Below, piece by piece: positions 10,389 through 55,549 of a DNA stretch of 64,000 nucleotides; position 1 is the first letter of the stretch, and every line of letters starts with the position of its first letter. The stretch is from Verrucomicrobiales bacterium (GTDB lineage Bacteria; Verrucomicrobiota; Verrucomicrobiia; Limisphaerales; JAYPXF01), in NCBI GenBank assembly GCA_038154405.1, contig JAYPXF010000001.1:22772-86771 (forward strand). Direction: 5' to 3'. Under the pieces are notes generated by a model. The model made no database searches, was not told where the DNA came from, and saw only the letters and a list, made by a program, of their open reading frames with translations. The position numbers and the translations under genes are program-made.

Positions 10389-11068
10389 TCAATCTTGCAG
10401 GACGGCGGTGCTGTTCGGAGGTCTTCCACTTCCTTGTCGTTCAAGCTGGTGCAATCGGAGAGTTCCACCTGCTCGAGGGATTTTCAACTTATAGAGCGGA
10501 CTCAGGTCAGTCACTTCGTAGGTGGCGTGGAGCTCGAGTTCCTTCAACTGGGGCAGTTTCGACAAGGGACTGAGGCCGGCGATATCGCGTCGCTGATACT
10601 CAGGCGCTCGAGTTTGGTCAGTGACGCCAGTGGCGAGATGTCGGTCTGGTCGTCGCTTTGTATGGCCAGTTGCTTGAGTCCTGTGAGCGTGGAGAGCGGG
10701 CTCCAATCATCAATTGGCCCTTGGATGTGCAGGGACTGCAAGTTCCTCAGGTTGGACAGGAATCCGAGCTGGGTGACGCCTTCGCCGGTGAGTTCCCGCT
10801 GACGCAGATTGCCGAGTTGACCGATGGGTGCGAGTTCGACTTCGCGGACACTGTAGATGGTCAGGGAGTGCAGTTGCGCGAATTTTGCCAAGGGCGAAAC
10901 ATCAGTGATGGCAATGGCATTGAGATGGAGTGACTCCAGGCGATAGAGTTTGGCGATCTCGTCCGGGATTTCGGTTGGTTCCCATTCGATGTCGCCGATG
11001 CGCAGTTCGGTATCGCCGTGTATGCGGGCCGTCTTGATGGCGGCCACCGCTTTCTTGTCTTTGGCCAT
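10389..11068 (-). pseudogene. leucine-rich repeat (LRR) protein interrupted by a frameshift near 10586-10590
   Basis: ORF 10544..11068 (LRR units such as LESLHLNAIAITDVSPLAKFAQLHSLTI and LQSLHIQGPIDDWSPLSTLTGLKQL) ends ...LERLSISDAISPASVPCRNCPS*. The LRR pattern continues in another frame (ORF 10389..10706: RDIAGLSPLSKLPQLKELELHATYEVTDLSPLYKLK). One missing nucleotide around GACGCGAT would join them. Confidence 0.6.
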
Positions 11069-11152
11069 GGTGTCTCGGGATGGTTCTCGGCGAGCAACAA
11101 ATTTGCTTGTCGGATGCTCTGAATCGCCGTTGCCTTCGTATTCAAAAGCAAC

Positions 11153-11818
11153 ATGAAGAACACACCGTACAATCTTTTTGTCACCAAGCTTCTCTTCGCC
11201 GGCATCGCCTTGGGCAACGTTCAGGCCGGAGAAAAAGGCGGATGGAAATCGCTCTTCAACGGCAAGGACCTCAAGGGCTGGGAAATCCGGAGTGGCGAGG
11301 CGACCTACAGGGTCGAGGACGGTGCCATCGTCGGCACGACCAAGAAGGGCAGTCCGAACACGTTCCTATGCACGAAGAAGAAATATGGCGACTTTGAGCT
11401 GGAATTCGAAGTGAACTGCGACAAGGGACTGAACTCCGGCTGCCAGATTCGTTCGACGCTGAAGGGCGACAAGTTTGGCGGTCGCGTGAATGGTCCGCAG
11501 GTGGAAATCGAACACAGCGGAGCCAAGGGCGCCGAGTCTGGCTACATCTACGGCGAGGCCGCCGGTGGTTGGCGCACACCGAAGGAAGACCGCACGCCGC
11601 ACAGGCACTACAAGGACGGCGAATGGAATCACTATCGCATCGTCGCCAAAGGTCCCGTGATCGAGACCTGGATCAATGGCAACAAGGTCACCAAGCTCGT
11701 CGACGAAGAGATCTTCAAAACGCATCCAAAAGGCCTCATCGGTTTGCAGGTTCACGGTGTCGGCGATCGCGGTCCCTTCCAGGTGCGCTGGCGCAAGTTG
11801 CGGATCAAGGAACTCTGA
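11153..11818 (+). CDS. DUF1080 (3-keto-disaccharide hydrolase-like) domain protein, secreted
   Basis: Signal peptide, then hallmark GWKSLFNGKDLKGWE...GAIVGTT...NTFLCTKKKYGDFELEFE...GLIGLQVHG...VRWRKLRIKEL. Confidence 0.85.
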   Translation: MKNTPYNLFVTKLLFAGIALGNVQAGEKGGWKSLFNGKDLKGWEIRSGEATYRVEDGAIVGTTKKGSPNTFLCTKKKYGDFELEFEVNCDKGLNSGCQIRSTLKGDKFGGRVNGPQVEIEHSGAKGAESGYIYGEAAGGWRTPKEDRTPHRHYKDGEWNHYRIVAKGPVIETWINGNKVTKLVDEEIFKTHPKGLIGLQVHGVGDRGPFQVRWRKLRIKEL

Positions 11819-12066
11819 TTGGGGAGACCGGAAATCTACGAGGTAGGATGGGCGGGAACAAACGGTCTGCTGAACGGCGGGGCTGATTTGCTGCACCAGT
11901 ATCTTAGCGGCGACTTCCAAGTCACCGAGAAGGCGTATCCTATAAATGTTTCCCCCTTGCCCCGGCGATTTGGAGATTACCGCTACGATCGGGCTTGGCG
12001 GCCAACGCTGATGACATCGGATCCCGTTGATTGTGTTGGAGCAGTCGTTCGGCAATCATCACGGGC

Positions 12067-15015
12067 ATGAAATTGTTTGGCCTGTTGCCCGCTGTTTTCG
12101 GTTGCCTGGTCTGCTGTAGCGCCGCGCCGATACCGCGTCCGTTGGAGCTGGTGCCGAATCCGCCCGCCGTGCAGATGCTGGTGCCGGGTTTCGAGGTCGA
12201 GGAGTTGCCGGTACAATTGCGCAACATCAACAACCTGGTGTTTGCTCCGGACGGACGGTTGTTTGCGCTCGGCTATGACGGTTACGTCTACCAGTTGCAC
12301 GATCGCGATGGCGACGGACTGGAGGATAAGGCCACCCTGTTTCACGATGACCGGGACAACCGGATTCCCGAGAGCATCGGCATGACCTGGGGACCGGGGC
12401 GGAATGGCGAAGGCGAAGGACTCTACATCGCCAGCCGCGGTCGCGTTTTCTTCCTGCGCGATAAGGGGAATGGCACGGGCGAACTGGTGACGGCGACCAC
12501 CGGTTGGGATCCACCGACGTTAAAGGGCGGATCGAGTCTCGATGCGGTCGGGATTGCGGTGGACCAGGCCGGAGACATCTTCTTTTCGATCAGTGTGGAT
12601 GCGTGGCGCGAACCGTATCGCATCAACAGGGTAACCGGCAAATCGGACTACAACCAGTTCAGCGAACGGGGAACGATCATCAGGCTGTCGTCGAACTGGG
12701 TCCAGCGGGAGATCGTCAGCACCGGGTTGCGGTTTCCCGTGTCGCTGGCCTTCAATTCTGCCGGCGATCTTTTCTGTAGTGAACAGGAAGGCGCGACCTG
12801 GTTACCGAACGGAAATCCTTTCGATGAACTGCTGCACATTCAAAAGAGCCGGCACTATGGATTTCCGCCACGCCATCCGAGATATCTGCCCGGGGTGATT
12901 GATGAACCGAGCGTCTTCGACTACGCACCGCAACATCAGTCGACCTGTGGCCTGCACTTCAACGAGCCGGTCGCTGGCGGAAAGATGACCTTTGGCCCGC
13001 AGTGGTGGCGCGGTGACGCGATCGTGGCCGGTGAATCCCGCGGAAAAATCTATCGAACCAAGCTGGTGAAGACTCCGGTCGGATACGTCGCGCAGAATTC
13101 ACTCATCGCCTGTCTGAACATGCTGACCATTGATGCCGTTCCGACACCGGATGGAGATCTCATCGTGGCCTGTCACAGCGGCAAGCCTGATTGGGGCACG
13201 GGTCCGAAGGGGCAAGGCAAACTGTTTCGGATTCGGTATCGCGACGAAGCCGCACCACAACCGACACTGGCGTATGCCGCCAGTCCGACTGAGACCCGTA
13301 TTGTCTTTGATCGTCCGTTGCAACCAAAGCAGGTGAGCCATTTGACCCGCCGGAGTGATATCGACATGGGCCTCCATGTGGCCGCCGGAGATCGCTTCGA
13401 AGGACTGAGGCCCGGTTATCAGGTCGTGAAGGATCAGATGCAGATCGCCCGCTATCAGCTGCCGGTATTGTCGACCGCCCTTTCTTCGGACCGGCGGGAG
13501 ATCGCGTTGCATACGGAACGAAAAACGGTCGACTCCAACTATGCGGCGGCCATTCGGAAAGGCGGCGGTCTCCCGGACATGGATGTCCTTTCCGATCTGA
13601 ACGGAGTGGAGGTTCACATCGGGACGGAGCGCCATTGGCTGCCGCACGCGGACCTGAACGTGGCGCGTGAACTGACCAAGGCCAGCGAATCGCACCGCCG
13701 CTTGTTCCGGAATGCAGCCAAGCGAGGAATGGCTCTCAAGATGCAACTGGATCTGCATCTGATGCTGCGTCCGGCGATTCAACCAGGATCGAAACTCGAC
13801 TACGATTACCCACCGGAGCACGTGACTGTCGTGCTCGAATCGGACAAGCGACTCGAAGTGAAGTCCAGTGTGGTGACTCGCGGCGAGGGCAACACCGTCC
13901 GTCTCGCGGTCACTCCATCAGTCGAACAATGGTTGCCGCTGGAAGTGAAGCTGGCAGCGGGGGCGGATTTGAAAGTGCACTGGTTCACGGCCGAGGATGT
14001 GCGTCCACGTGCCTTCCCCCTGCGTCGCTTCAAACTTCCCTGGGTACGGCCCGCGGCTGAACAGTTGCCCGCATCGGAACGGCAGATTCCTGAAATCGCC
14101 GGTGGCGATTGGGCAAGGGGCAGGAAACTGTTCTTCAGTGAAACGTTTGCCTGCGGCAAGTGTCATCAGGTCGATGGACAAGGGGGCGTAATCGGAGCGG
14201 ATCTGTCCAACCTCGTTCACCGCGATTATGAATCTGTCCTGCGGGACATCATGCAGCCGAGCGGGGCGATAAATCCCGATCACATTTCGTACAACATCGA
14301 ATTGAAGGATGGCGATTCCGTATCCGGCGTCATTGTATCAGAGAATGAAGCAACGATCGGTGTCGCCCAGGCGAACGGAAACGTGATTCAGGTGAAACGC
14401 TTGACGATCAGTTCGCAAGTGGCCTCGAGTCTTTCACTGATGCCGGAGGGATTGCTCAAGACAGCGAGTCAGAAAGATGTTCGAGACCTGATGACCTACC
14501 TGTTGTCGAAGCCGACTGCGGCCAAGCCGGATTCCCGAGTGCCTCAATTGACACCGGCAGAGATTCTTGTCCTGCTCGGCGCCAAAGGCCGGAAAGCAGG
14601 AACGCCCAAGGAGCTCGCGGCGTACCAGCAGCACTTCGATCGCTCCGATTTGAATGGGGACGGCCGACTTTCTCGCGAGGAGTTTGTTGAAAAGGGTTTC
14701 TATCTCAACGCCCAGAGCCGGGAGGGAATCTTCCGCGCATCCGACACCGATCGTAACGACGTCGTGACTCGCGTTGAGTACGTCGAGAACCGGCGAATCA
14801 CAGATGAGGCCAAGTCCATCATGGCCGGCATGGACGAGAACCGGGATGGTCGGATCACCCGCTACGAATTCATGAAGATGTCTGGAGTCTTCGATCAGTC
14901 CTTCGCGGTCGAGATCTTTGAGCGATTGGATGGCAATTCAGATGGCGAGACGTTCACACCGGAGTATCTCCGCGTCTGGGGAGGTTGGGCGCGTTGGAAA
15001 CCCGCCGCTCCGTAG
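12067..15015 (+). CDS. PVC-type membrane-bound dehydrogenase-like beta-propeller fused to a cytochrome c domain and C-terminal EF-hand pair(s)
   Basis: ORF 12031..15015 trimmed to ATG 12067 (MKLFGLLPAVFGCLVCCSAAP). Propeller-like N-terminal half. Heme motif FACGKCHQVDGQGG (CxxCH). EF-hand loops DLNGDGRLSREEF, DENRDGRITRYEF and DGNSDGETFTPEY. Confidence 0.8.
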   Translation: MKLFGLLPAVFGCLVCCSAAPIPRPLELVPNPPAVQMLVPGFEVEELPVQLRNINNLVFAPDGRLFALGYDGYVYQLHDRDGDGLEDKATLFHDDRDNRIPESIGMTWGPGRNGEGEGLYIASRGRVFFLRDKGNGTGELVTATTGWDPPTLKGGSSLDAVGIAVDQAGDIFFSISVDAWREPYRINRVTGKSDYNQFSERGTIIRLSSNWVQREIVSTGLRFPVSLAFNSAGDLFCSEQEGATWLPNGNPFDELLHIQKSRHYGFPPRHPRYLPGVIDEPSVFDYAPQHQSTCGLHFNEPVAGGKMTFGPQWWRGDAIVAGESRGKIYRTKLVKTPVGYVAQNSLIACLNMLTIDAVPTPDGDLIVACHSGKPDWGTGPKGQGKLFRIRYRDEAAPQPTLAYAASPTETRIVFDRPLQPKQVSHLTRRSDIDMGLHVAAGDRFEGLRPGYQVVKDQMQIARYQLPVLSTALSSDRREIALHTERKTVDSNYAAAIRKGGGLPDMDVLSDLNGVEVHIGTERHWLPHADLNVARELTKASESHRRLFRNAAKRGMALKMQLDLHLMLRPAIQPGSKLDYDYPPEHVTVVLESDKRLEVKSSVVTRGEGNTVRLAVTPSVEQWLPLEVKLAAGADLKVHWFTAEDVRPRAFPLRRFKLPWVRPAAEQLPASERQIPEIAGGDWARGRKLFFSETFACGKCHQVDGQGGVIGADLSNLVHRDYESVLRDIMQPSGAINPDHISYNIELKDGDSVSGVIVSENEATIGVAQANGNVIQVKRLTISSQVASSLSLMPEGLLKTASQKDVRDLMTYLLSKPTAAKPDSRVPQLTPAEILVLLGAKGRKAGTPKELAAYQQHFDRSDLNGDGRLSREEFVEKGFYLNAQSREGIFRASDTDRNDVVTRVEYVENRRITDEAKSIMAGMDENRDGRITRYEFMKMSGVFDQSFAVEIFERLDGNSDGETFTPEYLRVWGGWARWKPAAP

Positions 15016-15076
15016 CGGAGTTTGCAGAAGAAAAATTCCGACGCCCGAGAACGGAAGATTTCGCATCTTGCGCTAC
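15012..15076. repeat. bipartite palindromic intergenic element (copy 1) spanning the gap between two convergent stop codons
   Basis: The left arm GTAGCGGAGTTTGCAGAAGAAAAATTCCGAC contains the TAG stop of the + gene (15013-15015). The right arm CGGAAGATTTCGCATCTTGCGCTAC (15052-15076) contains the TAG stop of the minus gene (complement of 15073-15075). Both arms recur at 28908-28996. Confidence 0.5.
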
Positions 15077-16230
15077 ACCTTCAGGAAGATCTTTTTGCGG
15101 TAACAGAGGTAGAGCATGGCCCACTTGGACATGACGAGGCCGATCGCGATCAGCACCGGTTTGAAGTCACCGGTCAATGAGACAGGTCCGTCCAACAATC
15201 CATGCGTCAGGCGATAGAAATCGATGAACTTGGGCGCCATGTAGATGAGGATCGAATTCGCTCCGATCACCACGAAGAAGAAGGTCCACTTGCGGAACTT
15301 CCACACATCGATCACGAGGTGGAACAGACTCAGCGACAGCAGACTCAAGCCCGCGCAGTGCAACACGAACGAACTGCTCCAGAGATTCTTGTTGATCGGG
15401 AAATCGAGGTTCCAAAGCTGTGCCAAGACTAAGGATCCGACACCGGTCGCCGCCATGATTCCGGATTTGCGCATGCCGCCGATCGAACTGCAGCGCAGCA
15501 GTTCGCCGGCGAGCCCACCGATCAACGCGGTGGCGATGGCGGGAAGCGTGGCAAACAGGCCTTCGGGATCACGAACGTCCTTGTAGAGCTTGCCCGGCAT
15601 AAGGTTCTGGTCGATCCAATCGGTGAACGTATGTCCCGGCGATAGGTCGCCCGCTCCATAGCCGGGAACGGGGATGAAACGAAGGGCGATCCAATAGCCT
15701 ACCAGGATCCCGACGATCCACCACAGCCGAGCCCGCCATTGGGTGTTCAGGACGATGATGGCGGCGAACATGTAGGCCAAACCAATCCGCCCGAGCACGC
15801 TGCAGTAGCGCATGTTCGCCCACTTGTCCGGATCACTCCAATCGAACTTGAGCAGGCCGTTGTAGATCGCTCCTAAGAGCACCAGCAAGAGACCTCTTTT
15901 GATCACGTGCCTCAGGATCTTCGAGTTGCTGTCACCTCGAGTCTGACGATTGGCAATGGCGATCGGCGTCGAAACGCCGGCGATGAAAAGGAACAGCGGA
16001 AAGATCAGATCCCACAAGGCAAAGCCGTGCCATTCCGGATGCACCATCTGGTTGTCGAGAATCCACTGCAGCCATTCCCACGAGGTGAAGGCAGCGAGCG
16101 CCGCCACCAGCGTCTTGCCGCCCATGATCCAGAACATGTCGAAGCCGCGGAGCGCATCGACGCTGACAAGGCGTTCTGCGGGTTGCTTGACTTCGTCGGT
16201 GAGCTTGTCGTTCGTCTGATCGTCCCTCAT
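15073..16230 (-). CDS. heparan-alpha-glucosaminide N-acetyltransferase (HGSNAT)-like / DUF5009 polytopic membrane acyltransferase
   Basis: 385 aa, multi-TM. The N-terminal motif RLVSVDALRGFDMFWIMGG resembles the conserved start of the HGSNAT/COG4299 family. Confidence 0.75.
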   Translation of the reverse strand: MRDDQTNDKLTDEVKQPAERLVSVDALRGFDMFWIMGGKTLVAALAAFTSWEWLQWILDNQMVHPEWHGFALWDLIFPLFLFIAGVSTPIAIANRQTRGDSNSKILRHVIKRGLLLVLLGAIYNGLLKFDWSDPDKWANMRYCSVLGRIGLAYMFAAIIVLNTQWRARLWWIVGILVGYWIALRFIPVPGYGAGDLSPGHTFTDWIDQNLMPGKLYKDVRDPEGLFATLPAIATALIGGLAGELLRCSSIGGMRKSGIMAATGVGSLVLAQLWNLDFPINKNLWSSSFVLHCAGLSLLSLSLFHLVIDVWKFRKWTFFFVVIGANSILIYMAPKFIDFYRLTHGLLDGPVSLTGDFKPVLIAIGLVMSKWAMLYLCYRKKIFLKV

Positions 16231-16351
16231 TGGCGGCTGCGGTGTATGGAAGAGCCGAATCTACGGTTGGCCCACTCGGATTCAAGAACACAAGGTCTGA
16301 GAGTTGAATTACTTCGCCTTCAACCGTCGCGCGGTGCGAGTCTTCGCGGCG

Positions 16352-16786
16352 ATGAAGACGAAGAAGATTCGACTCATCTATCTGGCCATCACCCCCTTGG
16401 TGGTGGTTTTGGGTCTGTCGTCGCGAAAGTTCGACGAATCCCTGCCTGCGTTCATCGCCGACTACGCCGGCGACACGCTCTGGGCGTTGATGGTGTTTCT
16501 GGGGATCAGTTTTCTTCTCCCGGATCTGCCGGTGATGAAGCGGGGAGGCTTCGCCCTGGCCTTTTCCTATTTCATCGAGGTGAGTCAGTTGTATCACGCG
16601 CCATGGATCGATGCATTGCGGGAGACCACTCTGGGCGGACTAATCCTGGGCTTTGGTTTTCTTTGGACGGACCTGATCTGTTACACGGTCGGCATCGCTT
16701 TCGGGGCGATGGCGGATCTGCAAATGCGGAAGCCCGACTCGATGTCCGAACCAACCGGGCAGGGCGATCGGAAGACATCCGAATGA
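16352..16786 (+). CDS. DUF2809 family membrane protein
   Basis: ORF 16304 (TTG)..16786; ATG 16352 is preferred (MKTKKIRLIYLAITPLVVVLG). Family-typical blocks YAGDTLWALMVFLG and EVSQLYHAPWIDALRETTLGGLILGFGFLWTDLICYTVG. Confidence 0.7.
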   Translation: MKTKKIRLIYLAITPLVVVLGLSSRKFDESLPAFIADYAGDTLWALMVFLGISFLLPDLPVMKRGGFALAFSYFIEVSQLYHAPWIDALRETTLGGLILGFGFLWTDLICYTVGIAFGAMADLQMRKPDSMSEPTGQGDRKTSE

Positions 16787-16787
16787 T

Positions 16788-19517
16788 TCAGCGAACCTCC
16801 ATCAGGGAGATGTCGTCGATCAGCACTTCGCTGTTGCTCGGTGGCTGGGGGTGAATGGTGATGGAGCGGAGGTTGTTTCTGGGCGTCAGTGAGACGGATT
16901 GGGATCCGCGTATCTCGCCTCCCGCGATGGTCATGGTCGCGCTGTAGGTCTGGGCGCGGCGATTTGCGAGGAGGCGGAGTTCGGTCCATTGATTGGCGGG
17001 AACGCTCAGACCGATGTCCGCCCATCGATCGGTGGACATGTCGCGGAGGCGGACGTTGCCGTGTTCGTTGATGCTGACCGCCAGCTCCTCCTGAAACGCG
17101 CCGTTGTAACCGCGCAGTTGGATGACGGTCGCGGATTGCAGGTTGAGGCGCATGAGCCGGAAACGGAGTTCGTAGTCGGCCTGATCATCAACGGGCGGAA
17201 CGGCCTGGCCGGTGAAGGATTGACCGCCGCGGCGCAACCAAAGGGCCTGACCTGATCCCGAAGGAACGGTGCGAATATGCGGTCCCCCATCGAGCAAGGC
17301 TCCCCAGCGACCGGTCACCCGATTCACATCACCGACCATGCCACGCTTGTCGGGTATCCATTCGGTTCTGTCTTCGAAATCCTGTGTCAACCGTGGTACG
17401 ACCGGTTGTTTGAGGAATAGAGGACGCTGTCTCATTGCTTCTGTGTTCTGGCGTTCGGTGACCTCTGAATAAGTCCCGGGGCTTTGTCGGATGTAGAGAC
17501 TCTTCCAGGCGTTGATGGCCAACTGACGGTCAGCGTCCTGATCGATGAATCTCTGCAGTATGGTTTCCCCTTCCGCACCGAATGCGAGCAGGGCGTTGCC
17601 CACGGGGCGGAAAGCCCATTCGGAGTCAACGTTCGTGTAACCATCCCCCAAGTGCTCGAAACGATCGCGCAGGACGTTGCGGATCTGTTCCTTCAGGTCT
17701 GCGACCGACGCATCATTGCGGGTGATCGCTTCGCCCAAGGCGACACAGGCTTCATTGATCATCACGGGATCGGAATGTTCTGTGATTCGCAAGAGTTCCG
17801 AGATTGCGTCTTCCTTGCGATGCAATCGGCCAAGTCCCCTCACCGCAGCAACCCGGGTAAAACGGTCGGTGTCAGAGAGGGCCTGTTTCCATACGGGAAG
17901 CAGAGAAGCATCGGGCATGAAGATCAATGCGCGCATGGCCATTTGTTTCACCTTGGCGGATTTACTTTTCAGATATGCCTGTGCCAATTCCGCGCGTGGC
18001 AGGGGACGAATCCGCGGCAAGGTGACCCGCATGATCTCGGCGAGCATGTGGTTTCCATGTTGCTCGATGGATTCGAGAATGCGGGTGGCGGACTGGGGAC
18101 CATGGGCTTCCCGCAAGGCGACCCCGGCCATGCAACGAATGCTGTTCTCCGGATCGAACAGCGCGGCTTCAATCGCCTTCACGGCGTCCGCGCCGCCGAT
18201 CTTGCCGAGCGACTGAAGTGCCAGACGGCGTACGATCAGATGGGGATGCCGGACCAAGGGGAGGACTGCGGCAGTCTCCGCCTTCGAATGACCGTGAATG
18301 ATCTGCGACAAGGCCTTCATCACCAGCAGCGGATCGTTGCTGCCGAGACTGCTCATCGGTTGTTCGGGCACGTAGCTGCGATCGAGATACATGGCGTCCT
18401 CGCCGTAAGCGATGACGGTCGGAACGCCTTCCTCTTGAAACGGTTTCCAATGAGTCGCCTTGGGACCCGAGGTGAGAATGCCGACATTGGCAGACGTGTT
18501 TCGGGTCAGCCAACGCATGTTCTTCACCGCGCGCAGCTGCACGTCGCGATTGGCGTAACCGTAGACGAGAAAGTCATCGACCAGGCCGGTCCGCACCCAG
18601 TTCTCGACGTCGAAATACATGCTACCGGCGGTCTGGAGGATCTCGGGAACATTCCATGGCTGTGGATGGCGCGGCTCCCAAGGCTGAAGGAAGAAGCCGA
18701 GGCCCTGCTTGTCCTTGTCCAGCTCCACCTTGAGTTCCTTGAGAAATTCGGTGACGTATTCACCGCGCAAGGCCAACCAGTCATGACGTGAGGCAAAACG
18801 GGTCCAGTCCTGGTAGCGGATGTCGATGCCGTGACGTCGCTTGAATTCCTTCACGATCGGTTCATTGAAACCGAACTCGTCCTGAAATCGCATGGAATGA
18901 TTCTCGGCATAGGTGAGAAAGGTCATTCCGTCGTAGCCGTCCTGCTTCATGAACTTCATGTGCAGATCGACCAGTGCTCGACGGGCTTCCGGGTAGGCAA
19001 GCTCGATGGGTCCCCCCTGTTTCAACAGACCCGATCGATCAACCGGCACCCATTCGGGATGGCCAATCCGCAAGCCGCTTTCCGAATTGAACGGATAGTT
19101 TTTGAACGGCGGGACCTCACCACCTCCGCCCCAGTCGAAGAGATTGGCGACGCCCCAGATCTCCATGCCCCGCTTGCGGGCGGCCTGAACCGCAAGACGA
19201 TCGGGATGCACGTCGCGATAGAGGTGACGCAGCCACTTCCAGAATTCGTAGTAGCGGACGCTTTCCGGACGTTCGCGATGCTTGTCCACCCAGGTGGCCG
19301 CTTCGAGGCCGCGCCAATAGACGCGCTTCACTCCGAGGCGATGCAACAGGTCGAAGCTGGCGTCGATGCTCGCTGGAGAATCGATCGGCAATGATTGACC
19401 GAGCCATTGGTTGTCGCCCGTGCTGATGTAGCAATGCAGCAACGGGCGTTCGTCGGTCGCGGCGGATACACCCGTGGAAATGGTGAAGAACAGAATGGTC
19501 AATGTTCGAATGCTCAT
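16788..19517 (-). CDS. secreted 909-aa protein: N-terminal glycoside-hydrolase-like TIM-barrel region, central HEAT repeats, C-terminal lectin/LamG-like region (function unknown)
   Basis: Signal peptide MSIRTLTILFFTISTGVSAA. HEAT-like repeats (LVRHPHLIVRRLALQSLGKIGGADAVKAIEAALFDPENSIRCMAGVALREA; DRFTRVAAVRGLGRL). Long clean ORF. Confidence 0.7.
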   Translation of the reverse strand: MSIRTLTILFFTISTGVSAATDERPLLHCYISTGDNQWLGQSLPIDSPASIDASFDLLHRLGVKRVYWRGLEAATWVDKHRERPESVRYYEFWKWLRHLYRDVHPDRLAVQAARKRGMEIWGVANLFDWGGGGEVPPFKNYPFNSESGLRIGHPEWVPVDRSGLLKQGGPIELAYPEARRALVDLHMKFMKQDGYDGMTFLTYAENHSMRFQDEFGFNEPIVKEFKRRHGIDIRYQDWTRFASRHDWLALRGEYVTEFLKELKVELDKDKQGLGFFLQPWEPRHPQPWNVPEILQTAGSMYFDVENWVRTGLVDDFLVYGYANRDVQLRAVKNMRWLTRNTSANVGILTSGPKATHWKPFQEEGVPTVIAYGEDAMYLDRSYVPEQPMSSLGSNDPLLVMKALSQIIHGHSKAETAAVLPLVRHPHLIVRRLALQSLGKIGGADAVKAIEAALFDPENSIRCMAGVALREAHGPQSATRILESIEQHGNHMLAEIMRVTLPRIRPLPRAELAQAYLKSKSAKVKQMAMRALIFMPDASLLPVWKQALSDTDRFTRVAAVRGLGRLHRKEDAISELLRITEHSDPVMINEACVALGEAITRNDASVADLKEQIRNVLRDRFEHLGDGYTNVDSEWAFRPVGNALLAFGAEGETILQRFIDQDADRQLAINAWKSLYIRQSPGTYSEVTERQNTEAMRQRPLFLKQPVVPRLTQDFEDRTEWIPDKRGMVGDVNRVTGRWGALLDGGPHIRTVPSGSGQALWLRRGGQSFTGQAVPPVDDQADYELRFRLMRLNLQSATVIQLRGYNGAFQEELAVSINEHGNVRLRDMSTDRWADIGLSVPANQWTELRLLANRRAQTYSATMTIAGGEIRGSQSVSLTPRNNLRSITIHPQPPSNSEVLIDDISLMEVR

Positions 19518-19529
19518 GGGAGGAATCGA

Positions 19530-19778
19530 TCAATCGTCAGGTTCCACTGCCTTCGCGGGCAGGGATTCAATGGTATCCCGCATGCTTTGCGCCTCCGCCT
19601 CATCGATCACGCTCAGGGCGAAGCCGACGTGCATCAACACGTGATCGTCAGTCTTGGCTTCGTTGGTGAAGGCGAGGTTGATCTCCTTGACCACGCCGCC
19701 GAACTGCACGCGACCGGTTCGCATGAGCGGATCGTCGCCTTGGATCTCCAGCACTTTTCCCGGTATGGCGAGGCACAT
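19530..19778 (-). CDS. hypC: hydrogenase maturation chaperone HypC/HupF
   Basis: 82 aa starting MCLAIPGKVLEIQG... (invariant N-terminal Met-Cys). Found as an internal start in ORF 19530..20231; ATG confirmed at 19778-19776. Confidence 0.85.
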   Translation of the reverse strand: MCLAIPGKVLEIQGDDPLMRTGRVQFGGVVKEINLAFTNEAKTDDHVLMHVGFALSVIDEAEAQSMRDTIESLPAKAVEPDD

Positions 19779-20527
19779 GGCTTTACGTTCCTGGTTCTTT
19801 GTTCTTGGTACGGTTCGACTGGGCTCACCGCGGGCTTCGTTTGTGCGGCGATGACGGCTTGGCCCAAGGCGATGCCGCCGTCGTTGAGTGGCACCTGTTG
19901 CGGCCAGAAGACTTCGAACCCGTCGGATTGCAGACGTTCGATCGTGGCTTCCAGCAGGATGCGATTCTGGAAACATCCACCGGACAGCACAACTTTCTTC
20001 TCTCCGATTTGCTGCGCGAGCATGGCGATGTTCTCGACCAACCAAGCGTGGAATCGTTCGGCAATGGTGTGCACTTCCGTGCCGTCGCGCAGATCGGCCA
20101 ACACCGCGTTGAGCATCGGTTCCCAATCGATCGGTTGAGCGGTTTCGATCGGATACACATTCTCTGCCAATCGATTGCAGGCGAATTTCAACGCCATCGC
20201 CGCCTCGCCTTCGAAGGTGTTGAAAGGACACAGTCCGGTCAGCGCGGCAATGGCGTCGAACAGGCGGCCGATGCTCGATGTGCGCGGGCAGTTGGTTTCG
20301 GAACGAAGCATCGATCGACCTGTTTTAGATTCCGCGGTCGGCAGTTTGAGCAATTCAACGTCTTCGTCTGAGCAGCCGGCTTCATGCAACAATCCCAGCG
20401 CGGCGCGAACGCGGCCGACCAGTTCACTGGCGGGACGTTCTTCTCTTCCATCACGGCCGCGGCCGCCCTGTTGACCGCCGTTCCACGGAAAATAGGCGGC
20501 CTGCCAAAAGTTTCGCGGGCAATGCAG
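19634..20527 (-). pseudogene. hypF: 5'-truncated remnant of carbamoyltransferase HypF (C-terminal Kae1-like part only)
   Basis: The frame of ORF 19634..20392 is open up to an in-frame TAA at 20530-20528. It encodes HypF C-terminal blocks SSIGRLFDAIAALTGL, VVLSGGCFQNRILLE and PLNDGGIALGQAVIAA. The acylphosphatase, Zn-finger and YrdC parts (about 450 aa) are absent. The tail runs about 145 nt into hypC. Confidence 0.65.
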
Positions 20528-20814: not shown

Positions 20815-21711
20815 CTACTTGTTGAGGAAGTAGCCGCGTTGTTTCTCGCTGATGGGAAGATTGAGGAGTTCCATCACGGCGAGCATGTCTTCCCAAACCT
20901 TGCGTTTTTCGACATGGCCGGTGCTCCGGAGAAGATAGGACGGATGGAACGTGGGCATGACCGGAATGTCGCGATAGGTCATCCAGGTTCCACGAAGTCG
21001 CGTGATGCCTTGCTGTGATTTGCCGAACAAGCCTTCCAACGCAGTTCCACCGAGGCCGATGATGACTTTCGGACGGATGATCTCGATCTGCGACGCGAGA
21101 TACGGAAGGCAGGTGGCCATTTCAGAAGGCGTCGGTTTACGATTACCGTAACGCTGCCCAGGTGTATCCGGGCGGCACTTCAACACGTTGCCAATGAAGA
21201 CGTCCTGCCGCTGCAACCCCATGGCGGCGATGATCTTGTCGAGCAGTTGACCCGCCTTGCCGACAAAGGGCTCACCCTTGGCATCCTCGTCCATTCCGGG
21301 CGCTTCGCCGACAAACATCAGATCCGTGTGAATGTTGCCCACGCCGAACACGACATTTCGCCTGGAACGAACCAGATGGTCACACTTTACGCACTGCAAC
21401 GCGCGATTCCTCAGATCTGCCATTGCCCGCTCTTTTTCCTCGCGGGACATGAGCGCGCCGCTCGGAGCGGGTGACGACGGCGGAGCCGGCTGCTCTGCAA
21501 CCGACGGAGTCGGTGAAGACTGCGGAGGAGAAACGGGCTTCTGTCTGGCTGGGGCGGGCGCAGGTCGTTCCTGCTGAGCGGGAGCCGGGGCCGCCAAGGG
21601 CTTAGCCAGAGCCGTGAGATTCGCCGGATCCAAATTGACATGCCTTACTCCGCGTGCCTTCTCCGCTTCGAGATGGCGGATGGTGGCATCGAGCAGCTCC
21701 GGATAATCCAT
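20815..21711 (-). CDS. uracil-DNA glycosylase family 4 with Pro-rich N-terminal extension
   Basis: Motifs VVFGVGNIHTDLMFVGEAPGMDEDAKGEPFVGKAGQLL, NVLKCRPD and MPTFHPSYLLR. Confidence 0.85.
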   Translation of the reverse strand: MDYPELLDATIRHLEAEKARGVRHVNLDPANLTALAKPLAAPAPAQQERPAPAPARQKPVSPPQSSPTPSVAEQPAPPSSPAPSGALMSREEKERAMADLRNRALQCVKCDHLVRSRRNVVFGVGNIHTDLMFVGEAPGMDEDAKGEPFVGKAGQLLDKIIAAMGLQRQDVFIGNVLKCRPDTPGQRYGNRKPTPSEMATCLPYLASQIEIIRPKVIIGLGGTALEGLFGKSQQGITRLRGTWMTYRDIPVMPTFHPSYLLRSTGHVEKRKVWEDMLAVMELLNLPISEKQRGYFLNK

Positions 21712-21806
21712 TTGCGGATCTTGGAAGCCGCATCGTATGGCCGAAAGCCTTTCTTACTCACAAATCCGACCTTCATAATTCATCTTTCATCACCCATCCT
21801 CATCCA

Positions 21807-22103
21807 ATGAATCGTCATTGCTGGAAATGCGGAACGGAATACACCCTAGATGGCCAACCTGGCCGGGGTGAATCCTGCGAAAAATGCCGGAGCGATCTGC
21901 GTGTTTGCAAGAACTGCGTCAGCTATGATCCGCGCGTCGCCGAGCAATGCCGCGATCGCCGCGCCGATCCGGTGACGGAGAAGCACATGGCGAACTTCTG
22001 CGAATGGTTTGAAATGGCGAAGCGGGAATTTGGAGGCGAGGAGGCCGAATCGGATCGGGCGTCCAAAGCCCGGGAAGACTTCAACAAGTTGTTCGGCGAC
22101 TAA
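21807..22103 (+). CDS. small zinc-ribbon protein (98 aa)
   Basis: ORF 21654..22103 trimmed to ATG 21807. Cys pairs: CWKCG, CEKC and CKNC, plus C..FC. Confidence 0.6.
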   Translation: MNRHCWKCGTEYTLDGQPGRGESCEKCRSDLRVCKNCVSYDPRVAEQCRDRRADPVTEKHMANFCEWFEMAKREFGGEEAESDRASKAREDFNKLFGD

Positions 22104-22348
22104 TCGGCGCTGCATGGTTCAAAACACGGTCATTTCCCGATCAATCACCCATAAGCCAAGCTTGGTTAATTATTCTGAATCATTTTCGGTCAAGTTTAAT
22201 CCGTTTAGGAATTCTAATCAAAAGGCAACCGTTATTCTACGTAGTCCTTTGGACTACAGAAAATGGTTTTTTCTCATAAAATGTGGCAGATTTAGATCGG
22301 GTATAATTGTTACAGTTGTAAGACTTTTTAATTTTCTCAAAAAACAAA

Positions 22349-43735: not shown

Positions 43736-44983
43736 ATGAACCGACCAGACCGGATAGCCTTTTTTTTGCGGCCGCCGTCATCTTTGCGCTCGCTCCTGCG
43801 ACGTTCGCCCAGCGGAACGCCGCCTACGAGGAACCGCCGCTGAATTACAGCGACACCACGACGAGCAATCGTGCCGAACAGGTTGAAAAGCTCTGGCGTG
43901 CAGGGAAGCTGAATGGTTCGGACGATTACGGCAAACCAGCCTTGCGGGCGTTTCTGAAGGCCTTCGACGTGCCGGTCGAATCCCAGGTGCTGGTGTTCAG
44001 CAAGACCAGCCTGCAATACCCGCATATCGATCCCAAGAATCCCCGCGCCATCTAATTCTCCGATGACGCCTACTTCGGCTGGGTCCCGGGTGGCATCTAT
44101 GAGCTTACGCTGAACGATCCCCATCTCGGCCTCGTATTCTACGGGATCGATCCGGAGGAGAAACGCATTCAGCGCGGGCGAGACTGCCTGAACTGCCACG
44201 CCGGGTCCCGCGTCCGCGATTGGCTGGGCGTGTTGGTGCGTTTGGTCTTTCCCGAAGAGGACGGCACACCGATGGGACGCGCCGGGGGATTCGTGATCGG
44301 ACATGAAAGTCCGTTTGAGAACCGCTGGGGCGGCTGGTACGTAACCGGCCAGCACGGCAAGGCCCGGCATCTCGGCAACGGCATCGCCAAATGGGCTCCC
44401 GGCGAAGCGGTGATTGACGGGGATGTCAATGCAAACCTGACGGATCTCTCCAAGAAGTTTGACACTTCCAAACACCTGCGCGGCGACAGCGACATCGTTG
44501 CGCATTCGCAAATGGAAGCACCGGCAGGAGGAGTTTCAAAGAATGATCGGTGAGCCGATGCCAGAGGAACCGACCGGCACCTTGCTGACCGTGCTGAAGG
44601 GTGAGCGCGATCGCATTGTCGATTACCTGTTGTTCCGCGATGAAATCGAACTTCCCGAAGGCGGCATCACGGGCACGGAGGATTTCGAGAAGGCGTTTCA
44701 TGGCAACCGCAAGCCGGATTCAAAGAACCGTAGCCTGAAGGACTTCGATCTGAACACCCGCCTGTTCAAGTACCGCTGCAGCTACATGAGCTACAGCCAG
44801 GCATTTGAAATCCTGCCCGATATGCTCAAACGCGCCGTGTATGGGAAGCTGTTCGAGGTGTTGGAAGCGGATGAACCGCCGGCAAAGTTCGCCCATCTTC
44901 CCGCGGCCGAACGCGAAGCCATCCGCGACATCCTCCTCGCCACCAAACCCGACATCACCCGCCTGCTCGGCCGGGATGGGTAA
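43736..44983 (+). pseudogene. secreted CxxCH heme-motif protein carrying three lesions (T8 frameshift, in-frame TAA, second frameshift)
   Basis: ATG 43736 gives MNRPDRIAFF, then a T8 run (43760-43767). The hydrophobic signal sequence continues only in the +1-shifted frame (AAAVIFALAPATFAQ). TAA at 44053-55 interrupts ..KNPRAI*FSDDAYFGW.. while the same frame stays open through CLNCHAG. A further shift near 44510-44530 is needed to reach ORF 44459..44983. Confidence 0.55.
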
Positions 44984-47909: not shown

Positions 47910-48337
47910 TTACCGTTGGCGAAAATCGACTGCCTTCAGAAAGCCTTCCCGTGTCTTGTGTTCGTCGCAGATCGATTGCATTTCCGATCGCGTAAGCGAC
48001 CCACCTGTGTGGGTTTCGGCAAACTCGTTAACCAGAATGAGGTGACGAGTGCCGCCGGGTCCGGCCGCCACCCAATTGTCCGTTTCTCCCTTCCATCGGA
48101 TCATTGGTGGTCGCGCATAGGAGGCGTTCAGATGAGCGACACGAGCAGCGATGACATTCCATGACCGGCGGCCATTGCGTTGGATGGCCATTCTCCAAGA
48201 TGTTTCAGCGCGATCTCCATGGCGGATTCCGCGTCATCGAGTTCACCGGGAATCAGCTGAGGACGCATTCCGATGTCATCGCACGAGATCAGATCATCCT
48301 GATCGATGCCATAACGGTATGCAGCCCCGCCGTTCAC
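47910..48337 (-). pseudogene. unrecognised gene apparently split into two overlapping frames (ORFs 48128..48337 and 47910..48191)
   Basis: Both ORFs have coding-like composition (MNGGAAYRYGIDQDDLISCDDIGMRPQLIPGELDDAESAMEIALKHLGEW... / ...NVIAARVAHLNASYARPPMIRWKGETDNWVAAGPGGTRHLILVNEF...). No domain recognised. The single-gene interpretation is speculative. Confidence 0.3.
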
Positions 48338-48420: not shown

Positions 48421-48714
48421 CTAAAAGTAGTCGTCCCGATGTGAACCATCGTATCTGCCGGACTTCAGGCAGCAGGCTTTGAAGCGACGGCCGGAGCCGC
48501 AGGGGCAGAGGTCGTTGCGGCCGAGCTTCTCGCCGTGTACGCCGCGCGCGCCTTTGCCGACCTGGGTTTCGGATGGGAATCCTTTCCGACGCTTGCCGGT
48601 GCGTTCGAAAAAAAAGCCATGTCTTCGTAGTGTTCGCGTTCGCGCATGGTTACTCCTTTGTCGAGTTGGACGGCGAAACGACGACAGAAATCCGCGATGT
48701 AAACCGGACTTCAT
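48421..48714 (-). CDS. small SEC-C motif protein; N-terminus ambiguous because of an A8/T8 tract
   Basis: C-terminal [16 protein letters not shown] (SEC-C). An alternative start ATG 48647 ([13 protein letters not shown]) is in another frame and would join across the homopolymer 48608-48615 if it were 9 nt long. Confidence 0.6.
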
Positions 48715-48873: not shown

Positions 48874-49455
48874 TCACCGGCCGGCATGAAGCCACGGATG
48901 CAGCCAGCGCGTGAGCGTGGGCATGATCGGCCAGGTGAGCAGGACGGAGAGAAGACATACCGAGATGAATAGGTCCAGATCGGGATGCAGGTTCAGCGGA
49001 GACAGCACGGGCGTGGTGACCCAACGCAACAGAATGATGGACGGGTAGACCGCCAGGACACTGGTGGCGATGAGCTTCCATGCCGGTGGCGTTCGTTCCG
49101 TCGGCTCAGGGGATGCGAACCAGAGTTCCACCCCTTCACAGGGTGTGTGATGGGTTCGTTCCTCGATGAATCCCGTGCATAGGTCGATCCAGTGACGATA
49201 CTCATCGGACGCGTGCCAGCGGTTCAGATTCTCCGCGGTGTCGAACTTGAGAATGATGAGGTATTCCGGACGGTCACGGCTGCGTGGTTCCACCACCTGC
49301 CGGGCGCGAAATCCGGGTGCCTTTCTGGCCGCCGCGCAGATGCCAGCCGACCAGGCCTGATATTCCTCGATGCGATCGGGCCGGACGATTTCAGAAATGA
49401 CCAGACCCACGCCGCTGGCGGGTTGCGGGTCGGAAGGCGCATCGTTCATGCGCAA
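48874..49455 (-). CDS. antibiotic-biosynthesis-monooxygenase (ABM)-like domain fused to a C-terminal membrane segment
   Basis: Ferredoxin-like ABM block (LVISEIVRPDRIEEYQAWS...YLIILKFDTAENLNRWHASDEYRHWID) followed by hydrophobic helices (WKLIATSVLAVYPSIILL, LFISVCLLSVLLTWPIM). Confidence 0.65.
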   Translation of the reverse strand: MRMNDAPSDPQPASGVGLVISEIVRPDRIEEYQAWSAGICAAARKAPGFRARQVVEPRSRDRPEYLIILKFDTAENLNRWHASDEYRHWIDLCTGFIEERTHHTPCEGVELWFASPEPTERTPPAWKLIATSVLAVYPSIILLRWVTTPVLSPLNLHPDLDLFISVCLLSVLLTWPIMPTLTRWLHPWLHAGR

Positions 49456-49497
49456 AGAAGATCTTGTGGGAATGGTCGCTGTCCAGCCAAATGCCGA

Positions 49498-50028
49498 TCA
49501 CTTCTCATGACGGATGTGCCAACGACCGCGGCCGTTGTTCTCGACATCCACAGAATAGGTCTTGGCGGTCTGGCCATCGGGAGTGGCGGGTTGCATCGAG
49601 TACTCGACGTCGATGTACAGTTCCAGCCGCTTGCCTGTGTCCCCGCGAGTTCGACGGCGGGCGGTGAGATCTTCGATCTTCAGGGAGTCGATGACCTTGA
49701 TTACGGACTGCAGTTTCTCGGCCACTTCGGGCTTGGACGCCGGATCATCGCCGAGCTGTTCCAGCAACGGATTCTGAAAACGCTTGCGGTAATCGATCAG
49801 GATCTCACTGCGGATCTCCTTCTTGCCCTTCGTCTCCGGGACCTTGTCCGAAAGCGTGGTGACACCGCCGGACCGCAACATCTCCTACAGTCCGGACGGT
49901 CCCTTCACCACGAGGACACCCCCGATCACGACAATGGCGGCGATGATACCGGCTGGCCCCTTCAATTCGAACTTCTGCCCCATGGACAAGATGATCGTGC
50001 CACTTTGCTGAGCGCGGCCGAGACGCAT
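49498..50028 (-). pseudogene. hypothetical membrane-anchored protein interrupted by an in-frame TAG (49887-49885)
   Basis: ATG 50028 (3 nt after the selO stop) gives MRLGRAQQSGTIILSMGQKFELKGPAGIIAAIVVIGGVLVVKGPSGL, then TAG, then in the same frame EMLRSGGVTTLSDKVPETKGKKEIRSEILIDYRK... (= ORF 49498..49881). Confidence 0.45.
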
Positions 50029-53558: not shown

Positions 53559-53599
53559 TTTCTAAAGCGTTCTTTGTTCTTGGTTTCTCGTGCGACGAC

Positions 53600-54571
53600 C
53601 TACTTGGGAAGCCACTTCTTCCAGTTCTGGGCGAACTCCTCGACGTTCTTCTGGGTGACGGCAGTCAGGGGGAAGTTGTCGATGGCGTTTCTGGGTTTCT
53701 TGCGAAGGTGAACCTTGTTGATGACGTGTTCCACGCTCTTGTAGCCGTAGCCGTAAACGTCTTGTGAGAGCAACAGCGGAACGTGGCCGCTGCGGACGTA
53801 GTCGAGCTGTTGCGGGAGGGCATCGACACAGACGCACTTGACGGTGCCCGGTTTCCATTTGAGGGCATCGTCGGTGAAGAGCGGCCAACCGCCGAGCAAT
53901 CCCCAGCCGGTGATTTCCGGATGAGCCTGCATGACCTGCTCGATGCGGGCGACAGCGTCCTGCGGAGTTTCTTTGTGGTAGTAGACGTCAAGCAGCTTGA
54001 TGCCCGGGAAATCTTTGGCGGCAGCCCGGAATCCCTTCTCACGTTGCTGGAGGTTCTGCGCATTCGGGTTGCCGTCGATCGCGGCAACGACGCCCTTGCC
54101 CTTCAGGAGTTTGGCCAGTTCCAAGAAGGTCTGGCGGCCGCATTCGAAATCGTCGATGCCGACGGCGACCGTACGTTTGCTGCGGGGTGCATCGCCGGAA
54201 AAGGTTACGACCGGCACGCCGTAACGTTCCGCCTTGTTGATGGAGTCGGTGAGCTTGTTGGCGTCGGAGCAGCTAATGATGACGCCGTCGGCGCCGTTGA
54301 GCAGGAGCTGTTCGATGATTTCGGCCTGCCGCTGCGAGTCCTCCTGATTGGGGGAACGCCAGTCGATCTTGATCTTGATGCCATACTTCTTGCCCAAGTC
54401 GCGGGCGGCGTCATTCGCGCCGACCCGGGAGGCCTCGAAGAACGGGTTGCCCTGCGATTTGGCGATCATGCCGATGACGTAAGAGCGCGCGGCGTCGGCG
54501 GGTGTCGCCGCAAAAAGGCTTATGGCAAGCAGGGGAAGAAGACGCTGAAGGAATTTCATGGCGCGGAGCAT
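53600..54571 (-). CDS. orphan sugar-binding periplasmic protein (type I PBP, RbsB/LsrB-like)
   Basis: Signal peptide MLRAMKFLQRLLPLLAISLFAATPADA. IGMIAKSQGNPFFEASRVGANDAARDLG... No adjacent permease or ATPase. Confidence 0.8.
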   Translation of the reverse strand: MLRAMKFLQRLLPLLAISLFAATPADAARSYVIGMIAKSQGNPFFEASRVGANDAARDLGKKYGIKIKIDWRSPNQEDSQRQAEIIEQLLLNGADGVIISCSDANKLTDSINKAERYGVPVVTFSGDAPRSKRTVAVGIDDFECGRQTFLELAKLLKGKGVVAAIDGNPNAQNLQQREKGFRAAAKDFPGIKLLDVYYHKETPQDAVARIEQVMQAHPEITGWGLLGGWPLFTDDALKWKPGTVKCVCVDALPQQLDYVRSGHVPLLLSQDVYGYGYKSVEHVINKVHLRKKPRNAIDNFPLTAVTQKNVEEFAQNWKKWLPK

Positions 54572-54645
54572 AACGGTGAAATCGGAAATGCCAATTTAAG
54601 TTTGAGCCGGGAAGGTCCGGTCCGCACACAAGCCGCTTCAACCGC

Positions 54646-55549
54646 TCAACAGATACGAGGCAACTGTTCACCGCTCAGCAGATCGAGGACGCGGTTGGCA
54701 CCCATCATTGTCTCCATGACGAGTCTTCCGTTCCCGGGTTTTCCAACGGTTCCGATCACGGCGGAGGCGGCGGTAATGGGTTTGTGGCGCAATGCGGAAA
54801 GCGCGGGGCCAACCTGTTCCGCGGGAACGATCGCAATCATTCGACCTTCGTTGGCGACGTACAGCGGATCCAGACCGAGCAGCTCGGCCGCGCCCCGGAC
54901 CTCCTCGCTGACGAGGATGTCGCGCTCGGTGATGCGGATGCCTATTCCCGAGTCGGCTGCAATCTCCTTGAGGGCGGTTGCCAGTCCGCCACGGGTGAGA
55001 TCACGCAGGCAATGCAATTCAATTTTCGCGTCCAACAATCGCTTCACGGCGCCGTTCAACAACCCGCAGTCGCTCAGGATCTCGGTCTCAAACTTCAGGC
55101 CTTCCCGCGCGGCAAGAATGGACAGGCCGTGCCGTCCGATGTCGCCGGTCACCAGTTGCACGCCGGCATTTTCTGCCGTTGCCTGCATCGACGCCGTAAC
55201 CTTCTCGAGATCGGTGCGGGAGAATCCCTCTTCGATGATCATTCCGACGCTGAGATAGCGCGGTGTCGCCCCGCACATTGCCAGGTCGTTCACGGTGCCG
55301 CAGACCGCGAGCTTGCCGATGTCGCCTCCGGGAAAGAACAATGGATGGACGACATATGAATCCGTGGTGAATGCCAATCTTGCTTCGCCGATCTCCACGA
55401 CCGCTCCGTCGTGATTCTGTCGCAGGATCGGGTTTGTCAAACGCCTGCTGGAACAGGTCCGTCACCAAGGAGCGTGTCAACGAACCACCGCCACCATGCG
55501 CGAGCTGGATGGTGGACCCGGATTGCTTTGGCAACGGACATTCGGCCAT
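54646..55549 (-). pseudogene. hypE: hydrogenase maturation protein HypE, frameshifted near 55430-55435
   Basis: The N-terminus MAECPLPKQSGSTIQLAHGGGGSLTRSLVTDLFQQAFDKP (ORF 55088..55549) continues in another frame as NPILRQNHDGAVVEIGEARLAFTTDSYVVHPLFFPGGDIGKLAVCGTVNDLAMCGA...GEQLPRIC* (ORF 54646..55440, canonical PRIC end). One extra nucleotide in GACAAACCCGATC explains it. Confidence 0.75.

Follow-up and report, generated by a model that had tools for sequence, protein, structure and literature searches.

Genome erosion after host restriction or a population bottleneck is known from Mycobacterium leprae, Sodalis glossinidius and Shigella. Here we analyze 64 kb of contig JAYPXF010000001.1 (GCA_038154405.1, positions 22,772-86,771, forward strand), hereafter the window, in which 11 genes are broken; decay of this kind is known, and the present case concerns a bacterium from seawater. 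As in those three organisms, accessory genes are hit by frameshifts, nonsense mutations, truncations and insertion sequence (IS) remnants, with several hits per gene and the core spared. Unlike them, the window holds only one IS481 fragment and its DNA-repair genes are intact, and the figures given here come from a survey of 64 kb.

The closest analogue belongs to the same phylum. "Candidatus Thermopylae lasonolidus" (Verrucomicrobiota, Pedosphaerales), a sponge symbiont, has 16% pseudogenes, which have been read as early genome reduction, in a genome of 4.9-5.1 Mb with 54% G+C, a coding density of 79% (72% without pseudogenes) and 99.9% average nucleotide identity (ANI), while Pedosphaera parvula has 0.5% pseudogenes (PMC9600693). 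The organism studied here is similar in genome size (at least 4.0-4.3 Mb), G+C content (58%), pseudogene fraction (~20% in the window) and near-clonality (~99.8% identity between distant samples). It differs in that its contigs come from seawater plankton rather than a sponge and its figures describe 64 kb rather than a whole genome, and the relatedness of the two organisms is established to phylum/order only.

On the sequence comparisons described below, the disrupted genes are most probably (a probability of roughly 0.85) genuine pseudogenes, fixed in the sampled population, whose accessory functions have been lost and which now drift neutrally. A preliminary description of this DNA had proposed that accessory functions are being lost to pseudogenisation while the core is spared, and shared lesions, relaxed constraint and additional private lesions all support that proposal.

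Census of dead genes

About one in five genes in the window is dead (11 of ~56). Together these genes span 7.4 kb and carry at least 18 separate lesions, and intact coding sequence makes up ~79% of the window. Given a background of 3-5%, the Poisson probability of 11 or more dead genes is 2e-6 to 2e-4. The dead genes are those for an LRR protein, HypF, a BlaI-like repressor, an IS481-family transposase fragment, one of three tandem paralogues (paralogue B), a DUF11 protein, a PNPOx-like protein, a CxxCH (heme) protein, the remnant of a 615-amino-acid (aa) protein, a protein interrupted by TAG at 49885 (the TAG-49885 gene) and HypE.

Lesion sites were checked by reading all six frames around each listed position, and the conceptually repaired products were tested against Pfam and NCBIfam profiles, PDB 2z1t, paralogues and full-length homologues. 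All five in-frame stops of the preliminary description are present (TAA 24334, TAG 28459, TAA 28477, TAA 44053 and TAG 49885). So too, at or near the reported sites, are the small frameshifts in the LRR, BlaI-like, DUF11, PNPOx, heme (T8 run) and hypE genes. Small frameshifts number seven in all, and alignments to a Pfam profile, PDB entry, paralogue or homologue continue across the lesions. Homology to a single family is recognizable on both sides of the lesion in the BlaI, PNPOx, hypE, LRR, DUF11, heme and TAG-49885 genes and in paralogue B. The claim of multiple lesions per locus also holds, with several genes showing two or three hits. The 43 genes treated as intact all translate without internal stops. 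No core gene has an in-frame stop, and recA and mutS are intact, as expected from the earlier statement that core genes are clean.

Lesions are shared by independent assemblies

Comparison assemblies were found by exact-protein look-ups. They derive from at least 10 samples, are 99.4-99.9% identical to the window, and were compared with it column by column at the lesions. Two are long contigs from Great Barrier Reef (GBR) seawater, Masthead (L002, masthead_4__contig_37743_pilon, 4.31 Mb) and Erskine (L001, erskine_4__contig_13467_pilon, 4.02 Mb), both built from Nanopore R9.4 reads, with polishing by Racon and by Pilon, the latter using Illumina reads. Tara scaffolds (SAMEA6003590) were taken as Illumina-only, from an inferred platform, and Logan contigs are short-read assemblies of other samples. 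Each of the listed lesions occurs in identical form in two or more independent assemblies, Tara and Logan among them, which favors real decay over artefact, as had been argued. The comparison with close relatives that had been proposed showed the same lesions in 2-8 independent assemblies, short-read-only ones included, and none of the listed lesions was private to the window.

These results bear on the possibility that the lesions are assembly or consensus artefacts (long-read homopolymer errors, methylation-motif errors or a chimeric metagenome-assembled genome, MAG) and that the genes are intact in the cells. The window has only two homopolymers of at least 7 bases, T8 at 43760 and A8 at 48608, and two reported lesions sit at these 8-mers; moreover, related contigs come from Nanopore R9.4 reads, and the Erskine contig does contain private 1-2-nt deletions that split genes which are whole in all other assemblies. 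Five of the seven small shifts, however, lie outside runs of more than three bases, the exceptions being the second LRR shift (A4) and the T8 run. Several lesions are 59-110-nt deletions or truncations. The ~59-nt deletion in the heme gene, the ~36-residue deletion in hypE and the truncation of hypF are of a kind that base-calling errors could not produce. With the same lesions found in Tara and Logan contigs from other samples, and none restricted to the window, artefact is a highly improbable explanation.

GATC occurs at two frameshift sites (DUF11 and hypE) and was considered as a sign of methylation-linked Nanopore error; this was ruled out, as Illumina-only assemblies agree. The private deletions of the Erskine contig are found in a sulfatase gene (52179-80), an EF-hand protein gene (14724), DUF2809 (16542), an ABC ATPase gene (33153) and prmC. 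They are probably residual Nanopore errors, and pseudogene counts taken from Erskine would be inflated.

Relaxed constraint and continuing change

The pseudogenes are under relaxed constraint compared with neighboring genes. Between the window and Tara, single-nucleotide polymorphisms (SNPs) number 2.54 per kb in pseudogenes, 1.31 in intact coding sequence and 3.84 in spacers (Fisher P = 0.018, pseudogene versus intact). Over all assemblies, the pseudogenes have 13/10/8 SNPs at codon positions 1/2/3, against 24/26/55 for the intact genes (P = 0.013), and the counts of synonymous and non-synonymous changes are 7:24 and 48:57, respectively (P = 0.023). Indels between the window and Tara are confined to pseudogenes and spacers, with 0 in 49.8 kb of intact coding sequence, 1 in 7.1 kb of pseudogene and 4 in 5.7 kb of spacer. 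The preliminary description had suggested examining whether the lesions are polymorphic. Those listed are shared between strains, though the T8 run varies in length, and extra private ones occur in the DUF11, hypE and heme genes.

The CxxCH (heme) pseudogene and functional readings of the interruptions

The CxxCH-family pseudogene (43736-44983, plus strand) belongs to an unnamed family of more than 1000 members of 420-460 aa each, and was aligned to six full-length ones. It carries a T8 run (43760-43767), an in-frame TAA (44053-44055) and a ~59-nt deletion with its junction at ~44496-44502. The T8 run lies in the signal peptide, with which ATG 43736 is out of frame. TAA 44053 falls on the conserved Tyr of 'PRAIYFSDD'. 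The deletion lies between copies of TTGCG and takes ~18 conserved residues ('LMVLEHQ..HN'); the resulting frame change is seen by tblastn. The frameshift reported at ~44520 is therefore real as a change of frame, but its cause is this deletion and not a 1-nt shift. Both TAA 44053 and the ~59-nt deletion are the same in all assemblies covering them, and further small deletions vary by strain.

Simple-sequence contingency loci, which underlie phase variation, are known from Neisseria, Haemophilus and Campylobacter. The heme gene resembles them in having a 5' homopolymer whose length differs by strain, toggling the frame: in eight other assemblies the run is T6, T8 or T9, and T6 and T9 are in frame with ATG 43736. 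It differs from them in that the gene downstream is broken in all strains. As a candidate phase-variable locus it was rejected, since the tract varies in length but the open reading frame (ORF) is not otherwise intact, given the fixed TAA and deletion. Because the downstream gene is broken in all strains, the tract variation is best described as neutral slippage in a dead gene rather than as a switch.

The broader possibility is that the interruptions are functional, through stop recoding, programmed frameshifting, or phase variation at the T8 run or at a 14-nt repeat in the same gene. In keeping with this, a T6 or T9 run puts the ATG back in frame, and three of the five in-frame stops are TAA, which ends only 2 of the 43 intact genes (TGA ends 29 and TAG 12). 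However, the fixed TAA on a conserved Tyr and the fixed frameshifting deletion together mean that no tract length yields a heme product. TAG and TAA are ordinary terminators here, the core genes have no in-frame stop, and scans of the window found no tRNA genes and no Rfam matches. No conserved slippery heptamer occurs at the junctions, the families concerned have uninterrupted homologues, and SNPs in the pseudogenes show no codon-position bias. Functional interruptions are thus very unlikely. Stop-codon reassignment in particular, which the preliminary description had set aside, is rejected by the use of TAG or TAA at the end of 14 of 43 intact genes and by core genes without in-frame stops.

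The 14-nt unit, GCATCTCGGCAACG, has its repeat seed at 44367-44386 (site 44356-44386), inside the heme pseudogene. It is single-copy in the window and Tara, and present in 7 copies in Erskine and 9 in Masthead, and a Logan short-read contig (L004) ends within the array. The array looks like a young minisatellite born in a dead gene.

Surface-protein and PNPOx-like pseudogenes

The LRR-protein pseudogene (10388-11068, minus strand) contains two 1-nt frameshifts of opposite sign, at ~10586 and ~10485, so that its LRR-like sequence falls into three segments, in frame A, then B, then A again. Once repaired, the protein aligns with LRR_4 and LRR_14 through the two junctions, LRR_14 covering residues 45-211. 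No indel separates the gene from its counterparts in Tara, Masthead and two Logan assemblies. The frameshift previously placed at ~10588 is real, but it is not a single event: the shift at ~10485, where A3 has become A4, is a second one.

The DUF11/CLIPPER-repeat surface-protein pseudogene (36777-38293, plus strand) has a 1-nt frameshift at ~37488-37492. In the repaired product, the DUF11 domain (residues 174-261) covers the junction at ~residue 238, and the gene calls of three assemblies place CLIPPER domains on both halves. The Tara strain alone has an additional Trp-to-stop change at 36964 and a 1-nt deletion at 37317.

The PNPOx-like pseudogene (42627-43170, minus strand) has a 1-nt frameshift at ~43005-43012, and PNPOx_N positions 1-81 run through the junction. 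Eight assemblies cover the site, with zero indel differences and seven substitutions in 0.55 kb. Four substitutions within 32 nt (42973-43004) are private to the window, which has T/G/T/T where all eight others have A/C/G/G. All four are non-synonymous and they adjoin the frameshift. This cluster may have arisen by multi-nucleotide mutation or by import of a patch from a divergent allele, for which the window itself yielded no donor sequence.

The BlaI-like repressor and the IS481 remnant

The BlaI-like repressor pseudogene (24008-24381, plus strand) has a 1-nt frameshift at ~24072-24079 and an in-frame TAA at 24334-24336. Across the two lesions, the alignment to Penicillinase_R covers positions 1-112 of 115. 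The TAA corresponds to ~position 108 of the 115-position profile, and the alignment goes four residues beyond it. The frameshift is the same in five assemblies. Short-read scaffolds end at 24320 and resume at 24540, a gap that holds the 3' end of the BlaI-like gene and part of the neighboring IS481 remnant. No blaR1 partner is present beside the BlaI-like gene.

The IS fragment that had been reported at this locus is confirmed as a remnant of an IS481-family transposase (24388-24573, minus strand). It retains the N-terminal 61-aa HTH part and matches LZ_Tnp_IS481, HTH_28 and HTH_29. It is the one IS481 fragment in the window, and an exact look-up of its product returned this locus only, so it gives no copy number. 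The spacers at 22160-22420 and 23912-23986, which flank a 369-aa TPR/YfiO-like gene, are hotspots of strain variation, with SNPs and 1-nt indels; only the window has an extra T at 22392. Tara and Logan contigs share a 4-nt deletion upstream of the BlaI pseudogene.

The hyp genes

Three hyp genes were identified, two of them damaged. The hypF remnant (19637-20527, minus strand) matches HypF_C_2 positions 50-241 of 241 (E = 6e-52). It keeps only the C-terminal Kae1-like subdomain, having lost ~500 N-terminal residues, in accordance with the truncation claimed earlier. Its open frame overlaps hypC, and the end of the UDG gene lies 287 nt upstream. The hypC gene itself (19530-19778, minus strand) is intact, encodes 82 aa that match HupF_HypC positions 1-63 of 65, and is called likewise in three other assemblies.

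The hypE pseudogene (54646-55549, minus strand) carries a 1-nt insertion at ~55430-55434 and has lost ~36 residues in frame, the junction of this deletion lying at ~55140. Its repaired product contains the Pfam domains AIRS and AIRS_C. In alignment with PDB 2z1t, query residues 9-137 correspond to chain residues 3-130 and query residues 130-300 to chain residues 167-343, leaving residues 131-166 of 2z1t (~36) without a counterpart. The alignment crosses the frameshift, with 'FDKPIL' matching 'FDNPIL'. The frameshift reported at ~55432 is present, but that account was incomplete in missing the ~36-residue deletion. Both lesions are the same in the Tara scaffold, and a further 1-nt deletion, at 55018, is present in the two GBR contigs.

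No hypD or hydrogenase genes are present in the 64-kb window, which leaves hypC an orphan. The combination of an intact lone hypC with a C-terminal fragment of hypF and a hypE damaged twice, in 64 kb that hold neither hypD nor structural hydrogenase genes, resembles the residual hyp sets that follow loss of a [NiFe]-hydrogenase.

Tandem paralogues and the TAG-49885 gene

Three paralogues of ~100 aa, which have a single membrane helix and share the conserved motif 'MYHSE.Y..Y..WW', lie in tandem at 27932-28901. Paralogue B, a small membrane-protein gene (28240-28575, plus strand), contains an in-frame TAG at 28459 and TAA at 28477, and is flanked by two copies, paralogue A (27932-28231) and paralogue C (28578-28901). 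TAG 28459 aligns to the conserved Tyr of 'MYHSE' in paralogues A and C, and TAA 28477 to F/D. Both stops are the same in Tara and Logan contigs.

The TAG-49885 gene (49498-49983, minus strand) is interrupted by an in-frame TAG (CTA at 49885-49887 on the plus strand) just after its N-terminal membrane helix. Its homologues have 161-165 aa, are up to 76% identical and are continuous through the stop position. The TAG is the same in the GBR and Tara assemblies. The Pfam and NCBIfam searches assigned no family to this gene, to the heme protein or to the tandem paralogues.

The 615-aa remnant, the SEC-C gene and a sister species

One dead gene was absent from the earlier list. It is the remnant of a 615-aa gene (47913-48313, minus strand), truncated at its 5' end and frameshifted, which keeps residues ~469-615 and changes frame at ~48180-48203. 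A tblastn search with the 615-aa product of a sister species (L109) placed residues 469-518 in one frame and 519-615 in another.

The small gene next to it encodes a SEC-C-motif protein (48421-48714, minus strand; E = 4e-9) and forms an intact 97-aa ORF with an A8 run at 48608-48615. The frameshift suspected at this run is unsupported: the conserved 64-aa core lies wholly 3' of the run, in frame with the upstream ATG. SEC-C homologues have 64-77 aa, similarity is confined to the part 3' of the run, and the run is invariant in three other assemblies (L001-L003). The protein has an Arg-rich N-terminal extension of 31 residues and is about four residues short relative to its homologues, which read 'VHGxKELTEKLGRND' there. 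An out-of-frame ATG stands immediately 5' of the run, which reads T8 on the coding strand.

The sister species is represented in the Logan assemblies SRR24111872 and SRR26909571. In its contig, whose shared gene is 76% identical at the aa level, coding sequence makes up 94%, and none of the 15 genes called in 19.7 kb is split. Between the homologues there of the TAG-49885 gene and of a Y2318_C/ABM gene it has ~8 kb with seven genes (10486-18664), including those for a Metallophos/Laminin_G protein, a CN hydrolase, an esterase, the 615-aa protein and an acetyltransferase. Only 43 bp separate the same two genes in the window (49455-49498). A RecQ-like gene comes next in the sister species and is missing in the window.

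How the genes may have decayed

Reading the broken genes as genuine pseudogenes, we propose the following course. Accessory genes would have been inactivated, namely hypF, hypE, the orphan BlaI gene and those for surface LRR and DUF11 proteins, a PNPOx-like enzyme, a CxxCH protein and small membrane proteins. Ordinary mutation would be the source of the single-base indels, mostly outside homopolymers, and of the stops that arose as TAY (Tyr) codons became TAA or TAG. Deletion at short repeats may have removed the ~59-nt TTGCG-flanked segment of the heme gene and the ~36 codons of hypE, 5' truncation would have left the hypF, 615-aa and IS481 fragments, and replication slippage would act on the poly-T run and the 14-nt repeat. 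Two or three hits in several of the genes imply that these had died long before the sampled strains last shared an ancestor. The dead genes would not have been deleted since, and strain-specific lesions would still accrue.

The cause that we infer is that these functions are no longer needed, combined with weak purifying selection or a weak deletion bias, and possibly with early genome erosion. Retention of multi-hit pseudogenes in a near-clonal population is compatible with a small effective population size or a weak deletion bias.

Local cluster or genome-wide erosion

Certain observations weigh against the reading proposed here, either for single genes or for the genome. TAA 24334 is confirmed in the two hybrid GBR contigs only. 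Residual function of the broken genes is possible; for example, a 127-aa product could begin directly after TAG 49885. The SNP statistics are based on 31 pseudogene SNPs. The 7.4 kb past the window, surveyed in the Masthead contig, holds seven normally sized genes and no split ones. Finally, neither the intact recA, mutS and UDG genes nor the seawater origin fits classical host-restricted reduction.

The last two points are also what would be expected if the pseudogenes are real but their density is local, as an old-relic cluster in an ordinary free-living genome that has undergone no genome-wide erosion or change of lifestyle. The normal flank, the intact repair genes and the origin of chromosome-scale contigs from seawater agree with this, as does a genome of 4.0-4.3 Mb, which is not reduced. 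Against it, the lesions form no single island, being spread over 45 kb among core genes (prfC, pssA, lptF/G, galK and recA); the G+C content of the window is uniform; multi-hit pseudogenes have been kept, not deleted; and the 8-kb, seven-gene block of the sister species is missing from the window. We consider a purely local cluster possible, if somewhat unlikely.

The other view is that of a widespread, near-clonal marine lineage, sampled in GBR, Tara Pacific and other runs, whose ~4-Mb genome is in early genome-wide erosion and in which about one-fifth of the genes are dead and old multi-hit pseudogenes are retained. The window and its clean 7.4-kb flank do not by themselves demonstrate a genome-wide excess, and we therefore put this view forward tentatively, as the less than even proposition that it is. 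Early genome reduction is a plausible inference, drawn from 64 kb. If erosion were genome-wide, it would suggest a recent collapse in effective population size, for example if the organism had become an obligate associate of a planktonic eukaryote or other host, in a group usually seen as free-living polysaccharide degraders. Such a seawater-derived member of the Verrucomicrobiota would offer a natural case of how pseudogenes originate, persist and are removed, of why hydrogenase-maturation and surface-protein functions become dispensable, and of host dependence.

Implications for annotation

For the pseudogenes as read here, the split ORFs belong in annotation as pseudogenes, and not as 'repaired' long-read errors or as many short hypothetical proteins. 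In the region of the Masthead contig that matches the window, 8 of 26 gene calls are shorter than 110 aa and have no Pfam family. The analysis also indicates that independent public assemblies can stand in for read mapping in sorting real lesions from assembly errors. Its practical value lies in correct annotation and in flagging the lineage for a whole-genome pseudogene count.

Lineage and other observations

A 905-aa DUF6797/cytochrome c protein encoded in the window has matches only in Verrucomicrobiota among GTDB species representatives. The closest are at 71% aa identity in the MAG 'Verrucomicrobiales bacterium SP5' and at 67% in Limisphaerales MAGs; by this search, the species of the window is not among the GTDB representatives. 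The lesion genes were not comparable by synteny in these representatives: the YchJ neighbor is kept in one relative (L025), which has no space for the heme gene. Exact-protein look-ups of paralogue A, paralogue C and an NHL protein returned zero matches. The window encodes sulfatases, sugar ABC transporters, galactokinase and a 3-keto-disaccharide hydrolase, a gene content consistent with a marine bacterium that degrades polysaccharides.

Pfam and NCBIfam searches found no family for small ORFs at 40.1-40.9, 47.9-48.8 and 56.4 kb. The sole exception among the searches for small unassigned ORFs was that at 21654-22103, which gave a HypA-like match below threshold. Codon-usage scoring failed to tell true frames from antisense ORFs at the G+C content of the window.

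Three further differences between assemblies concern genes treated as whole. Tara has a C-to-T change at 6100, where the 1459-aa ORF (5911-10290) is called as 63 aa and 1379 aa; the change may be a strain-specific nonsense mutation in a very long gene. At 33583, both GBR contigs lack one G found in the window and Tara, so that the ABC ATPase is called there at 445 instead of 499 aa; the difference reflects either true variation shared by the two or a systematic error of long reads. At 55927, near the 3' end of a SpoIIAA-like gene, both GBR contigs have an extra T, giving a product of 153 aa compared with 129 aa in the window and Tara.

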